A stretch of DNA of 64,000 nucleotides, taken from IMG/VR virus record IMGVR_UViG_3300027741_000027, positions 72,022 to 136,021 of that record. One strand, given 5' to 3'. Below, piece by piece: positions 4,746 to 53,481 of this stretch. Position 1 is the first letter of the stretch; every line of letters starts with the position of its first letter. The notes under the pieces were generated by a model. The model saw only the letters and a list, made by a program, of their open reading frames with translations. It searched no databases and had not been told where the DNA came from. The DNA is from a virus. The translations under genes and the position numbers were made by a program.

Positions 4746-4927
4746 ACTTTCTGTCGAAAGTAAGCCCGTAAGCAAAATCCCCCGCCTAGGGGGATAAAAA
4801 GAAGACTGCGGGTTACCCTATCCCCAGCTACAATAGGGACTCCTAAAGATCCTCAGGCTTTACCATACCTTTACTATTGGTATGATAGTGGGGGCGGGGC
4901 TGCTATGCCCCACCCTTTACCATCTCT

Positions 4928-5200
4928 TTACTTGCGGTCTACGTTCACGCTCAGGTCGAACGCTGCGTTAATCATGTTGATGGCCTCACGCAGCATGTCG
5001 TCTACTGCGTCTACTGCATCTCTGCGTTGGTCGTGCTGGATAGTGATAGGGTGCCACTCATTCTTCTCTGTGTCCTTGATGTAGTCTGTCTCGTCAAGGC
5101 TATGAACCAACGCCCATGTTTCCTGCTGTGCATCATGCACCATATCTAGGATGTTGTTGAGGCATGTTGTTGGGTCGTGGATGATCTTGGTCTTTGGCAT
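4928..5200 (-). CDS. Hypothetical early protein (90 aa)
   Basis: MPKTKIIHDP...; RBS GAGG and promoter at 5232-5264 indicate start at 5200 rather than 5314. Confidence 0.7.
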   Translation of the reverse strand: MPKTKIIHDPTTCLNNILDMVHDAQQETWALVHSLDETDYIKDTEKNEWHPITIQHDQRRDAVDAVDDMLREAINMINAAFDLSVNVDRK

Positions 5201-5231
5201 TTGGCCGTTCCTCTCATTGGTTGATGGAATC

Positions 5232-5264
5232 ATCTTAGCAGGTGCTAGGTAAAGTAAAGGTAAA
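5232..5264 (-). promoter_or_regulatory. Early promoter with TTTAC-N6-TTTAC box (8-nt class)
   Basis: TTTAC-N6-TTTAC-N8-TGC-TAAGAT on minus strand. Confidence 0.75.
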
Positions 5265-5267
5265 GCT

Positions 5268-5507
5268 TTATGATCCCCAACCGCGAGCCTGACCATACGG
5301 ATCATTGACTTCACGGTATAGGCGCTGTTCTGCCTGCTCCTGAGCGTCTGCGGCGGCGGCGGCAGGGTCAGCGGCCTGTAGTGCTTCCTTTTTTGCCTGA
5401 GCGTCTCTAAGACGCTTTAGGGCTTCATCGTATGCCTGTTGATCCTGTGCGCGTCTCATATCGAACGCTGCATCAGTCATCAGGTTTCTATAATCATTGA
5501 TTGTCAT
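5268..5507 (-). CDS. Hypothetical helical early protein (79 aa), leaderless
   Basis: ATG lies 6 nt after the -10 hexamer TAGGAT. Confidence 0.75.
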   Translation of the reverse strand: MTINDYRNLMTDAAFDMRRAQDQQAYDEALKRLRDAQAKKEALQAADPAAAAADAQEQAEQRLYREVNDPYGQARGWGS

Positions 5508-5513
5508 GGATTC

Positions 5514-5546
5514 ATCCTAGCAGGTCGAAGGTAAAGGAAAGGCAAA
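5514..5546 (-). promoter_or_regulatory. Early promoter with box (8-nt class)
   Basis: TTTGC-N6-TTTAC-N8-TGC-TAGGAT. Confidence 0.75.
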
Positions 5547-5651
5547 ACATCTGTTGCATGTTGTGCAACACGATCCATCTGGTCCTTCCCGCCCACCCTG
5601 TAAGTGTATCGCCATCCGGCGGCGGCAAGAGTAAAGATATGGCAAAAGATT

Positions 5652-5676
5652 GGAGGGGGCGATTGGCACCCCCTCC
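5652..5676. terminator. GC-rich hairpin, probable terminator
   Basis: GGAGGGGGC-gattg-GCACCCCCTCC downstream of 5688..5957. Confidence 0.5.
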
Positions 5677-5687
5677 GCTCTTGCTTG

Positions 5688-5957
5688 CTACGCTTTTGCT
5701 GCGAACCTGCGGCCCTTGTCTGTCAGGCCGTAGTAGTGGGCAGGGCGGCCACGCTTCTCGCTCTTGACCTTGCCTGTGATCTTGACCAGACCGGCCTTCT
5801 GCATCCGTGTCATAAATGACGGGGCAACCTCAAGGCTCATGGCCGTTGCTTGGCCCTTCTGTGCCTTGATTGCTGCCATTACAGTGGCGGCGTTGGCCTC
5901 ACCGAAGATTGTGCGGTGGTGCTTGGTGGTCTTGGTGGTTGTCTTGGTTGATGGCAT
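5688..5957 (-). CDS. Winged helix-turn-helix DNA-binding protein
   Basis: MPSTKTT... with ...RMQKAGLVKITGKVKSEKRGRPAHYYGLTDKG, a typical wHTH recognition helix and wing; RBS AAGGAG sets start at 5957. Confidence 0.65.
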   Translation of the reverse strand: MPSTKTTTKTTKHHRTIFGEANAATVMAAIKAQKGQATAMSLEVAPSFMTRMQKAGLVKITGKVKSEKRGRPAHYYGLTDKGRRFAAKA

Positions 5958-5997
5958 TTGGATTATCTCCTTGTTGGTTGATTGCCTTGTGTTACAC

Positions 5998-6041
5998 ACT
6001 GTATCAAATGATTTGATATTGAAAGGTAAAAGGTAAGTAAA
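5998..6041 (-). promoter_or_regulatory. Early promoter with box (18/19-nt class)
   Basis: TTTAC-N6-TTTAC-N19-TGA-TACAGT. Confidence 0.7.
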
Positions 6042-6053
6042 ATTTAGTCTTCG

Positions 6054-6248
6054 TCAAACGGGCATATTCTTTACGCCGTACTGAATCGCCATCTGTAACC
6101 AATTCCAGTGAAGGGGGGCGTAAAGCTCTTGCGTTCTCTGGCAAGAATGGCGTAATCCGCAATTCCCGAATGGCATATGCCAATTGCCTTCTTCGCTGCT
6201 ACTCCAATGTTCATACGGAGTCGGAGTCTTCTTTTTGTTGGGGTGCAT
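6054..6248 (-). CDS. Hypothetical early protein (64 aa)
   Basis: MHPNKKKTPT...; RBS AGGAG; promoter at 6277-6309. Confidence 0.6.
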   Translation of the reverse strand: MHPNKKKTPTPYEHWSSSEEGNWHMPFGNCGLRHSCQRTQELYAPLHWNWLQMAIQYGVKNMPV

Positions 6249-6276
6249 TCTTATCTCCTGATTGGTTGATAGAGTC

Positions 6277-6309
6277 ATACTATCAGGTGCTAAGTAAAGA
6301 AAAAGTAAA
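6277..6309 (-). promoter_or_regulatory. Early promoter with box (8-nt class)
   Basis: TTTAC-N6-TTTAC-N8-TGA-TAGTAT. Confidence 0.7.
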
Positions 6310-6354
6310 ACTTTCCCAATGCTTTTTACTGCCTTGTCCTCCCGCCCGCCCATC

Positions 6355-6397
6355 ATTATAACGACAGGCGGCGGGGCGCAAGCAAAGGTTAGGTAAA
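6355..6397 (-). promoter_or_regulatory. Promoter with box (18-nt class)
   Basis: TTTAC-N6-TTTGC-N18-CGT-TATAAT. Confidence 0.55.
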
Positions 6398-6448
6398 GGG
6401 TGGAGGGGGCATTTCAGCCCCCTCCGTGCCGCTCAACCAAACGGCAAA

Positions 6449-6709
6449 CTATGAAATCTCGTCCTGAAGCTCCCAAATCTCGATCTGATCGGGGTTCTGA
6501 GTCTGGAGGTTGGCAAAGTAATCGCCAATCGCCTCGTAGATCACGCGGCCCAGATCATCTTCGTTGATCTCTGACTCGTCTGGCGTGAACGGTGTCTTAG
6601 GCACCGCTACCAGAATCAGGCAATCTTCGTGAGCTTCTGCGTCCTGAGCAAGCTCATAGAAAGACTTAGGTGCTGCTTCGATCTTGTTACGACGGTTAAA
6701 GAACTTCAT
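6449..6709 (-). CDS. Acidic hypothetical early protein (86 aa)
   Basis: ORF with AAGGAG RBS and promoter at 6744-6786. Confidence 0.75.
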   Translation of the reverse strand: MKFFNRRNKIEAAPKSFYELAQDAEAHEDCLILVAVPKTPFTPDESEINEDDLGRVIYEAIGDYFANLQTQNPDQIEIWELQDEIS

Positions 6710-6743
6710 GTGATTCTCCTTCGGTTGATTTACTGTGTTTCAC

Positions 6744-6786
6744 ACTCTAGCAGGTCAATTGGAGCTAAAGGTAAAGGAATGGCAAA
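6744..6786 (-). promoter_or_regulatory. Early promoter with box (18-nt class)
   Basis: TTTGC-N6-TTTAC-N18-TGC-TAGAGT. Confidence 0.75.
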
Positions 6787-6799
6787 ACATTAAATTTGA

Positions 6800-6848
6800 T
6801 AAAGAAAGGGCCGGGATTGGGGAACTGTGAAATTCCTCTCCCGGCCCT
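6800..6848 (-). terminator. Intrinsic terminator
   Basis: AGGGCCGGGA...TCCCGGCCCT stem followed by TTCTTT on minus strand. Confidence 0.6.
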
Positions 6849-7112
6849 AACTGTCGCATATGCTGGCTATACCTGCTCAGTGCGCCTATCTTCTGAGTCA
6901 GTCGGCTTTATAGCTGCCTTATCGCTGGACACTCTCTACTTTGAGTTCCGAACCCATGATAGCTGTATAGTCGTCTATCCACTGCACTCGCACCTATGTT
7001 AGCGTGGCATCTCATCACGGTCTGTTTTACGAGATTGCTACCGACTCTCGTTAGTCCTCTAACCGACCGTCGCCGGTCTGACTACATGGCCGATGGGCTA
7101 GCTCCATCAACA
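6800..7112 (-). ncRNA. Candidate ~300-nt structured non-coding RNA
   Basis: Own promoter (TTGACT-17-TATAGT), own terminator, no credible ORF on the sense strand, consecutive hairpins including a GCGA tetraloop. Confidence 0.5.
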
Positions 7113-7118
7113 AGAACA

Positions 7119-7163
7119 ACTATACAGATGGCCCCATATGAAGTCAAGTAAAGGTTTAGTAAA
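7119..7163 (-). promoter_or_regulatory. Sigma70-type promoter abutted by TTTAC box pair
   Basis: TTTAC-N6-TTTAC-TTGACT-17 nt-TATAGT. Confidence 0.75.
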
Positions 7164-7211
7164 GGATTTACCAATGCAATGGATGGTCTTTGTTCCGCCC
7201 TCCCACCCTTC

Positions 7212-7254
7212 ATTATAGCAACAAAACCAATACGAAAAGTAAAGGTTTTGCAAA
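7212..7254 (-). promoter_or_regulatory. Promoter with box (18-nt class)
   Basis: TTTGC-N6-TTTAC-N18-TGC-TATAAT. Confidence 0.75.
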
Positions 7255-7453
7255 AAGCCTATAAAGTGGAAACAGAGAAAGGTGATGTATTCAGGGTTTT
7301 CTTTACTTTTCAGTAGTTTACCCGGATACTTTTCATATTATATAAAGGGGAATATTTTACTTTATATATATTGGTATATTTCACTAGGGATATTCTTAGT
7401 CTTTTCCCTGCAAAATAAAGGTTTTTATTTTTATAAAATAATACAATAAATTG

Positions 7454-7497
7454 ATTATATCATATTTTTTCCATTTGTCAAGTAAATATTTGGTTAA
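7454..7497 (-). promoter_or_regulatory. Sigma70-type promoter abutted by box pair
   Basis: TTAAC-N6-TTTAC-TTGACA-16 nt-TATAAT with TG extension. Confidence 0.7.
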
Positions 7498-7505
7498 TAC
7501 TTTAC

Positions 7506-52309: not shown

Positions 52310-52382
52310 TGCCACGGACAGGGTTCGAACCTGTATAAAACCGATTATGAGTCGGGTGCCTAAACCATTCAGCCACCATGGC
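52310..52382 (-). tRNA. tRNA with CAT anticodon (elongator Met or lysidine-type Ile2)
   Basis: GCCATGG/CCGTGGC acceptor, CCCGA-CTCATAA-TCGGT arm, GGTTCGAAC T loop; no encoded CCA. Confidence 0.9.
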
Positions 52383-52385
52383 CAT

Positions 52386-52456
52386 AGTCCCGCCGGGATT
52401 TGAACCCAGAATACCACTTTATAAGAATGGCGTGTTTACCACTTACACTACGGGAC
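52386..52456 (-). tRNA. tRNA with TAT anticodon (Ile, reads AUA)
   Basis: GTCCCGT/GCGGGAC acceptor, CCATT-CTTATAA-AGTGG arm, GGTTCAAAT T loop; discriminator U. Confidence 0.85.
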
Positions 52457-52463
52457 ATTAAAT

Positions 52464-52937
52464 TTAAGCCGTCATTTTATTAGCGTACTTAGCCCATTGA
52501 ACATCAGACCTAGCAACAAGTGACTCAATACTTTCATTGTTAACAATCCAAGAACCGTCATTACTGAATTCGCAATAAATGACAGATTCAACAACGCCAA
52601 GCAACTGACGACTGCAAGAAATACAGGGCCTAGAACTAGTTGCAAAATTGCCCGTTCTGGTCAAAGTTACAATGCAAATGGTGTCTGCATTGTGATGATC
52701 TTTAGGAAGATTTAGCAAAGCATGATGTTCGGCATGAACAGAAGCAATAGCCATACCGCCGTCATGCTTATGAGCGCAACCCTTAGCTAAAATCTCGCAC
52801 TTCTTATCACTTTTAAAAACAACTGCTCCGGTTCTATGTCTCTTATGAGTAGAACGCATAGCTTGCTTAGTAGCCTCGTCCCAAATAGACATTGGAGCAT
52901 ATTCTGTTAATAGACTTGTAGATGGAATGTTTTTCAT
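52464..52937 (-). CDS. Zn-dependent cytidine/deoxycytidylate deaminase family protein, leaderless
   Basis: HRTGAVV, HAEHHAL, RPCISC; TGT-TATACT 6 nt before ATG 52937. Confidence 0.88.
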   Translation of the reverse strand: MKNIPSTSLLTEYAPMSIWDEATKQAMRSTHKRHRTGAVVFKSDKKCEILAKGCAHKHDGGMAIASVHAEHHALLNLPKDHHNADTICIVTLTRTGNFATSSRPCISCSRQLLGVVESVIYCEFSNDGSWIVNNESIESLVARSDVQWAKYANKMTA

Positions 52938-52953
52938 ACCATCAGTATAACAC

Positions 52954-52991
52954 AAAACCCCCGGCGGGGCAACCACGAACCGGGGGCTTTA
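52954..52991. terminator. Hairpin terminator
   Basis: AAAACCCCCGG...CCGGGGGCTTT. Confidence 0.6.
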
Positions 52992-53000
52992 TTATATAAT

Positions 53001-53034
53001 CCCCGGTAAGCTTCAGTGAGAAGCTTATCCGGGG
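53001..53034. other. Strong hairpin downstream of tRNA-fMet
   Basis: CCCCGG-TAAGCTTC-agtga-GAAGCTTA-T-CCGGGG. Confidence 0.6.
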
Positions 53035-53036
53035 AA

Positions 53037-53108
53037 TAGCGGTGGAGGGAATCGAACCCTCTGCCTCTTGGATATGAACCAAGCGAGATACCAGTTCTCC
53101 ACACCGCG
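53037..53108 (-). tRNA. Initiator-like tRNA-fMet (CAT)
   Basis: CGCGGTG acceptor with C1:U72 mismatch; CTTGG-TTCATAT-CCAAG arm; A73. Confidence 0.85.
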
Positions 53109-53150
53109 ATGTACTATTATAACAGAGTTATAATAAATTTTCAAGTCAAA

Positions 53151-53222
53151 CTCCCCGACTAGGATTCGAACCTAGAACCTAATGATTAACAGTCATTTGC
53201 GCTGCCGTTGCGCCATCGGGGA
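53151..53222 (-). tRNA. tRNA-Asn (GTT)
   Basis: TCCCCGA/TCGGGGA acceptor, AATGA-CTGTTAA-TCATT arm, G73. Confidence 0.92.
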
Positions 53223-53225
53223 ATG

Positions 53226-53346
53226 AGGGTCACCTACGCTTTTCCGCTTGCGTATAATGGATCATTGTCTATAAATTAATTCCATTTTTTCATTTATAGA
53301 TTAGGCGGTTTCATCAGTGTCTATTATAACACCAATGGGTGACCCT
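53226..53346. ncRNA. Candidate ~120-nt structured RNA between tRNA-Leu and tRNA-Asn
   Basis: AGGGTCACC/GGTGACCCT closing stem enclosing three hairpins. Confidence 0.4.
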
Positions 53347-53348
53347 AA

Positions 53349-53431
53349 TACTCAGGAAGGGATTCGAACCCTTAAGGCCGCTTGGCCGGAAGATTTTGAG
53401 TCTTCTGTGTATACCGTTCCACCACCTGAGC
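53349..53431 (-). tRNA. tRNA-Leu (CAA)
   Basis: GCTCAGG/CCTGAGT acceptor, GAAGA-CTCAAAA-TCTTC arm, long variable arm, A73. Confidence 0.92.
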
Positions 53432-53481
53432 AAGTTGTTGTATTGTAACAGATGCTGGCAAAAATGCAAAATTTAAATCGT

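Follow-up and report, generated by a model that had tools for sequence, protein, structure and literature searches.

A stretch of about 310 nt on the minus strand (7112 to about 6801) of an uncultured phage genome very probably encodes a real, stand-alone structured non-coding RNA (ncRNA). It lies in a window of 64,000 nt, the whole stretch of DNA that was analysed, which corresponds to positions 72022–136021 of IMG/VR record IMGVR_UViG_3300027741_000027 (136 kb, about 85% complete). The unit has a promoter, a terminator and covarying helices and no coding frame, and RNA-library contigs are consistent with a transcript. The best explanation overall, to which about an even chance is given, is a stand-alone structured ncRNA of a new family that most likely acts in trans as a protein binder. 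In the proposed mechanism, RNA polymerase would start at the promoter at 7147–7119 and stop at the intrinsic terminator at 6847–6801; the transcript would fold into a core of about 160 nt (P2 to P6), with a possible pseudoknot of the P3 loop and with an exchangeable P1, P2a and 3′ domain; and the folded RNA would act in trans during infection by binding a host or phage protein.

Homologues, transcription unit and genome setting

Homologues were sought by protein and pattern scans of viral, metagenome, bacterial and archaeal collections, and matches were judged by reading or with covariance model R1. Besides the window, five further variants (71–96% identical) were found: an IMG/VR phage contig (L003/L016) that is 96% identical and lacks the 3′ domain, a second IMG/VR phage contig (L004/L022) that is about 71% identical, and three lake metagenome contigs (L013, L009 and L018). 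Model R1 gives the six variants 143–189 bits and has no further match across about 1.5 Mb of decoy loci; each of the three phage genomes has one copy. A distant blastn search with 601 nt against 50,697 phage records gave no match, and no cultured phage shares the stretch. Chance accounted for all 13 bacterial and archaeal genome pattern matches, nine of the 15 metagenome pattern matches and 120 viral loci obtained with a 14-base pattern; L006, L007, L159 and L160 were likewise rejected as chance pattern matches. The RNA is the first member of a new family of narrow distribution, carried by uncultured myovirus-like phages of a single lake-water lineage with genomes of about 130–140 kb. Since there are only six variants, about four of them independent, from one phage lineage, the covariation statistics are thin.

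The features of the unit are as follows.

7148–7165, minus strand: CCTTTAC box pair directly upstream of the −35 hexamer (one match, 0 expected by chance)
7119–7147, minus strand: sigma-70-type promoter TTGACT-17-TATAGT (10/12 consensus matches)
near 7112–7111, minus strand: inferred transcription start, placed from the promoter
7089–7111, minus strand: P1, variable 5′ hairpin of 8 bp with a 7-nt loop holding a 6-nt palindrome
7052–7084, minus strand: P2, 7084–7080 with 7056–7052; 3 of 5 pairs changed on both sides, 100% paired
7078–7065, minus strand: P2a, variable hairpin within P2, with a GNRA loop in the window phage
7030–7050, minus strand: P3 hairpin, 7050–7046 with 7034–7030; 2 pairs changed on both sides
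7043–7040 with 7021–7018, minus strand: candidate pseudoknot of the P3 loop, 77% paired
6983–7009, minus strand: P4, outer stem 7009–7007/6985–6983 and inner stem 7004–7002/6991–6989; 100% paired, one pair changed on both sides
6958–6979, minus strand: P5, 6979–6975 with 6962–6958; 5 bp, 2 pairs changed on both sides, 96.7% paired
6927–6949, minus strand: P6, 6949–6943 with 6934–6927; 3 + 3 bp, 2 pairs changed on both sides, 100% paired
6848–6926, minus strand: variable 3′ domain, containing H7 and a 16-nt block
6901–6893 with 6880–6873, minus strand: H7, covarying, with a 12-nt loop at 6892–6881
6801–6847, minus strand: intrinsic terminator seen in the fold, a GC-rich stem with an inner hairpin, then TTTCTTT

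The region shows no general excess of promoter-like sites (6 against 6.6 expected), but the promoter at 7119–7147 counts nonetheless because the distance of its −10 box to the conserved 5′ end is constant. The −10 hexamer TATAGT is invariant in the window, L003, L009 and L004, and all six variants have a −10 box at a fixed distance to the conserved 5′ end and TTTAC-type boxes upstream; in L004, L009, L013 and L018, too, these upstream boxes form pairs. The CCTTTAC boxes at 7148–7165 are part of a phage-wide box-promoter set. At the other end of the unit, a simple hairpin scan missed the terminator because its loop exceeds 8 nt, and the RNA fold shows it: GGGCCGGG at 6847–6840 pairs with 6815–6808, and TTTCTTT follows at 6807–6801. 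A GC-rich hairpin with a T-run closes the 3′ end in all six variants, with a different sequence in each. These results agree with the first-pass annotation, which had described a near-consensus promoter carrying a box pair, a strong terminator at the end of the unit and a second boxed promoter pointing the same way; the last has a conserved −10 box TATAAT at about 7222–7217.

Upstream of the unit there is also a perfect extended −10 promoter, TTGACA-16-TATAAT (7481–7454, minus strand), and downstream of it, within 7481–7250, a conserved AT-rich non-coding element with a 5-bp hairpin at about 7412–7386, which is common to the window, L003, L013 and L004. This element could be an additional small RNA, a leader or part of an origin.

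The RNA gene comes first in an array of short promoter–gene–terminator cassettes that share one orientation (about 4900–7100). The content of this array varies among related phages, while the RNA keeps its place at the head. Which unit follows the terminator depends on the phage: a gene of 86 aa, one of 160 aa, a G-rich promoter element with a gene of 50 aa behind it, or a PadR-like gene. A separate promoter lies 3′ of the terminator, each downstream cassette has its own, and the distance from core to terminator varies between about 30 and about 135 nt. No cassettes separate the RNA from the conserved 86-aa gene in the window phage and L013; L016 has three small genes there, and L022 has three different ones. 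Such differences fit a shuffling of promoter–gene–terminator units. In L004 (1925–1950) and L009 (745–775), the T-rich tail of the RNA terminator doubles as a box pair, TTTAC-N6-TTTAC, which precedes the next −10 box by 11 nt, and terminator and next promoter therefore overlap. On the plus strand at 4875–4945 there is an inverted copy of the box pair with a −10-like element and a G-rich run, directed rightwards and antisense to the array's last small gene (4928–5314).

Two further elements were observed. A small, basic PadR-like winged-helix protein is encoded at 5688–5999 (minus strand; Pfam E = 7e-5, below the curated cut-off); it is kept in all related loci, and in L018 (835–1066) it directly follows the RNA and a G-rich element. 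This protein is a candidate binder of the TTTAC boxes. Meanwhile, a G-rich motif (three G-triplets one base apart, then a GGAC-like sequence) begins 2–4 nt past a −10 box at 7222–7190, 6365–6335 and 5612–5580 on the minus strand; these are the only three copies in the 136-kb genome, all at most 1.7 kb from the RNA. The motif lies directly 3′ of the RNA terminator in four other variants (L009:770–800, L018:612–640, L022 and L011), and a small hairpin with a T-run follows the copy at 5598 and that of L018, where the motif may give rise to a G-rich RNA of about 50 nt with predicted G-quadruplex potential.

In the Pfam screen (99 of 102 ORFs of at least 90 aa, up to 25 families listed per screen at E ≤ 1e-4, genome about 85% complete), the phage was found to encode a tail sheath protein, a DnaE-type polymerase III alpha subunit, RecA and an SNF2 helicase, as well as a sigma-70 region-4 protein, ThyX, a class II ribonucleotide reductase and lysis enzymes. 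The nearest relatives of its DnaE, at about 30% identity, are those of Rhodococcus phage E3 and cluster-C-type mycobacteriophages, and this identity, taken by itself, weakly suggests a possible actinobacterial host. At 52310–53432 on the minus strand, 45 kb from the RNA, lie five clustered tRNA genes (Met, Ile-TAT, Met, Asn and Leu-CAA).

Parts of 6400–7500 occur in 24 public runs, six of which are lake metatranscriptomes; four of these, from four studies, were compared, and DNA runs with word shares of 0.28–0.47 were left out of habitat claims. RNA-library contigs lie on 6840–7101 (a whole contig of 262 nt), 6844–7050 and 6865–7013, the loose ends of the last matching the L013-type 3′ domain, and also on upstream non-coding sequence at 7190–7483; such contigs carry no strand, end or level information, and RNA libraries can contain DNA. 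The contigs leave 6400–6840 and 7103–7176 uncovered, gaps that carry no evidential weight. Two of the contigs, each from a different study, stop at 6840 and 6844 with no loose ends and thereby hint weakly at a discrete 3′ end close to the terminator. The lake RNA-library contigs are thus consistent with a transcript of the RNA gene, as support and not as proof.

Conserved core and exchangeable periphery

The predicted fold of the RNA has an energy of −105.5 kcal/mol (z = −2.7), and none of 100 shuffled sequences is as stable. The conserved core of about 160 nt (7084–6927, minus strand) consists of the five helices P2 to P6. In alignment A7 of the six-variant core, 96.2% of the cells form standard pairs, and 10 pairs are changed on both sides, compared with 3.9 ± 1.4 in shuffles (0 of 500 reach 10) and with 0–3 in slid controls in which the partners were moved by 1–3 columns; the covariation score is 0.299 vs 0.119. 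The compensatory changes keep strand-specific helices, G-U pairs included. When all column pairs were searched for additional covarying helices under strict criteria, nothing besides P2 and P3 was found. The covariation among collected homologues, which the first-pass annotation had proposed to examine, speaks for the RNA within the limits of six variants. Of the four hairpins it had picked out, GACCG/CGGTC (P2a), CGAGA/TCTCG (P3) and CTCAG/CTGAG (H7) show compensatory changes and stand, but the variants contradict GTTAG-AGGA-CTAAC, the 3′ half of which pairs instead, with covariation, with 7084–7080 in P2.

The individual helices differ in how they vary. The two compensatory changes in P3 recur in an L013-like strain in RNA run X19. 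The 10-nt loop of P4 (7001–6992) varies at only one position among the six variants, the loop of P5 is conserved with 11–13 nt, and P6 has three versions of its inner stem and a conserved 8-nt loop. The junction ahead of P6 (6957–6950) is invariant, and the core junctions and loops hold many invariant unpaired bases. The complementarity between the P3 loop and 7021–7018 occurs in two different versions, and the pseudoknot is rated only as possible because its register is off by one base in L009 and L004. Other contacts were considered and rejected: a kissing contact between the P4 and P5 loops and an alternative pairing of 7015–7009 with the 5′ strand of P6 would each require the register to shift from variant to variant, and visual likenesses to 5S rRNA loop C, the sarcin-ricin loop, T-arms, the hammerhead and the k-turn are not kept across variants.

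Outside the core helices, P1, P2a and the 3′ domain are regarded as periphery because they are replaced or deleted wholesale in some variants. P2a is swapped for a different hairpin in L013, L004 and L018. L004 has a different, shorter P1, the loop of which again holds a 6-nt palindrome, and L018 has a longer 5′ domain instead. The 3′ domain is replaced in L013 and L018; it is wholly deleted in L003, and at least this part of the RNA is therefore dispensable. Three of the five inner pairs of H7 are changed on both sides between the window and L009/L004, the 16-nt block at 6869–6854 is identical in these three variants, and the conserved 3′ block contains a palindromic octamer. The pentamer AUAGG is common to the 12-nt loop of H7 and the 10-nt loop of P4. 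The palindromic loop of P1 is kept only as a lead to a dimerisation site; it recurs in two lineages out of three, each with a post hoc probability of roughly 0.1.

Alternative explanations

It is highly improbable that the stretch is no RNA gene at all and instead encodes a small protein, forms a 5′ leader or riboswitch for the following gene, or serves at the DNA level, for example within a replication origin. An AT-rich region does lie 200–500 bp upstream, and an 18-codon ATG ORF, the only one that the first-pass annotation had noted in the 310 nt, is present at the 5′ end (7106–7050, minus strand) with its ATG kept in five of the six variants; but the ORF is 8, 15, 18 or 37 codons long, or absent, its peptides differ, no ORF on either strand is conserved in all variants, and no Shine-Dalgarno sequence precedes the 5′ ATG. 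A small-protein gene was rejected for this want of a conserved frame and a ribosome-binding site. The RNA is not a leader, riboswitch-bearing or otherwise, because the gene past the terminator differs between phages: the downstream unit differs four ways, the spacer varies from about 30 to about 135 nt, and a promoter of its own follows the terminator. The helices preserved by compensatory changes, G-U pairs among them, are specific to one strand, and the stretch is found in RNA-library contigs. The proposal of the first-pass annotation that this is a phage ncRNA with its own promoter and terminator is supported by the promoter, terminator and covarying helices, which are kept, by the unconserved frame and by the varying downstream gene.

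Known RNA classes were examined with Rfam 15 (4227 models), which covers tmRNA, RNase P, 6S, Ms1, Y RNA-like RNAs, pRNA, GOLLD, ROOL and HEARO as well as riboswitches, self-cleaving ribozymes and group I/II introns. At gathering score only the five tRNAs elsewhere in the window were reported; at E ≤ 10, four variants gave scattered chance matches on terminator hairpins, none recurring in the core, and ARAGORN found no tRNA or tmRNA at 6800–7112. The earlier impression that hallmarks of tmRNA, RNase P, 6S and group I introns are missing is in line with both searches. As for a partner protein, no RT (RVT), Cas, TROVE/Ro or Hfq-like family is among the families listed by the Pfam screen (99 of 102 ORFs of at least 90 aa, genome about 85% complete), and the genes adjoining the RNA encode small proteins and have no RT-type Pfam match. 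The template RNA of a retron, DRT or DGR was rejected on these grounds, within the scope of that screen, and a bacterial Y RNA of the YrlA type was rejected on the missing TROVE family together with the Rfam and ARAGORN results.

The remaining rivals accept the transcript and differ in what it does. It is unlikely that the RNA is a base-pairing regulatory sRNA, the conserved loops of which (10 nt in P4, 12 nt in H7) would serve as seeds on host or phage mRNAs: its own promoter and terminator are those of a classical sRNA and the two loops share AUAGG, but the longest complement elsewhere in the 136-kb genome is 12–13 nt, which is chance level, the RNA is much larger and its conservation more intricate than in seed-type sRNAs, and the H7 loop is missing in L003 and altered in L018. 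The same complement length speaks against a long antisense RNA aimed at the phage's own genome. Action as an antisense regulator or leader is not considered likely. A cis-acting RNA for processive antitermination, similar to HK022 put or the Bacillus EAR, would let the polymerase read through the RNA's own terminator and those of the array; this is quite unlikely, since the downstream cassettes each have a promoter, the core is roughly twice as large as put or EAR and resembles neither in Rfam, and two RNA-library contigs end at the terminator stem and not across it (a weak hint), even though in all variants the RNA comes right after a promoter and heads the cassette array (4900–7100). Very unlikely, too, is a ribozyme or ligand-sensing RNA, in which a pseudoknotted core would form a catalytic or metabolite-binding fold. 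Many invariant unpaired nucleotides beside covarying stems and a possible pseudoknot would suit such a fold, but no self-cleaving ribozyme or riboswitch model matches, the RNA-library contig of 262 nt spans the whole core uncut, and the variable spacer between core and terminator speaks against a coupled expression platform.

The reading preferred here, although held tentatively and at somewhat less than an even chance, is a folded RNA acting in trans that would serve as a scaffold or decoy for a host or phage protein to which it binds. Covarying stems, invariant unpaired bases and a swappable periphery together argue that the RNA would function through a defined three-dimensional fold. Trans-acting protein binding is therefore favoured for a self-contained transcription unit that has no fixed neighbour.

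Comparison with known RNAs and significance

It is useful to compare the RNA with phage RNAs that work as folded molecules. GOLLD and ROOL are likewise stand-alone phage or prophage RNAs with covarying helices and many conserved unpaired bases, and they do not depend on a partner gene next to them; GOLLD first came to notice in metagenomes from lakes. A recent cryo-EM preprint reports that ornate RNAs of the GOLLD/ROOL type self-assemble via loop contacts (bioRxiv 10.1101/2024.12.08.627333). However, GOLLD and ROOL are 500–800 nt long and usually lie beside tRNA genes, whereas this RNA has about 310 nt with a core of about 160 nt and lies 45 kb from the tRNAs; it has no Rfam similarity to them. 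The phi29 pRNA is similar in being a phage-encoded structured RNA with its own promoter, which works as a folded RNA in an RNP and multimerises through loop–loop contacts. It differs in belonging to small phi29-like podoviruses with protein-primed genomes and in its location at the genome end, while the present phage has a tail sheath, DnaE and RecA, and its RNA gives no match to the Rfam Phage_pRNA model.

HK022 put and EAR resemble the RNA in position, as they lie directly past a promoter and before several intrinsic terminators in a co-oriented array, but they are only 70–120 nt long, are not closed by a dedicated terminator and a fresh promoter, and show no match in sequence or structure; only position would fit membership in this group. 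6S and Ms1 are abundant stand-alone protein-binding RNAs that act as polymerase decoys, and Ms1 is of similar size (about 300 nt). Unlike these rod-like RNAs with a central bubble, the RNA has a multi-hairpin fold, and it has no Rfam match to them. Stable phage-encoded RNAs without an assigned function include RNAs C and D of T4 and the abundant early ncRNAs of mycobacteriophages; no sequence relation to them was found by blastn against the 50,697 phage records.

To our knowledge, a function has been assigned to few structured RNAs of phages, and every solved case (pRNA, put and the RNA anti-CRISPRs) has opened a new mechanism. The narrow distribution in one uncultured lineage limits the generality of what this RNA can teach. 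Its compact, well-defined core is small enough for chemical probing, crystallography and cryo-EM, the natural variants already mark its essential parts, and its presence in lake RNA libraries makes testing in vitro feasible though the phage is uncultured. In addition, the RNA marks one unit of a phage-specific box-promoter regulon, which aids the annotation of freshwater phages.

A more far-reaching possibility, which is doubtful at present, is that the core is a new functional fold, either a self-associating "ornate" RNA or a ribozyme or RNP cofactor, which the phage would use to take over or disarm a host machine; the self-associating option is considered because of the palindromic hexamers in the P1 loop of two lineages and the palindromic octamer in the 3′ block. 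If this new-fold reading is true, the RNA would be a phage counterpart to 6S, Y RNA or pRNA with an unrelated architecture.
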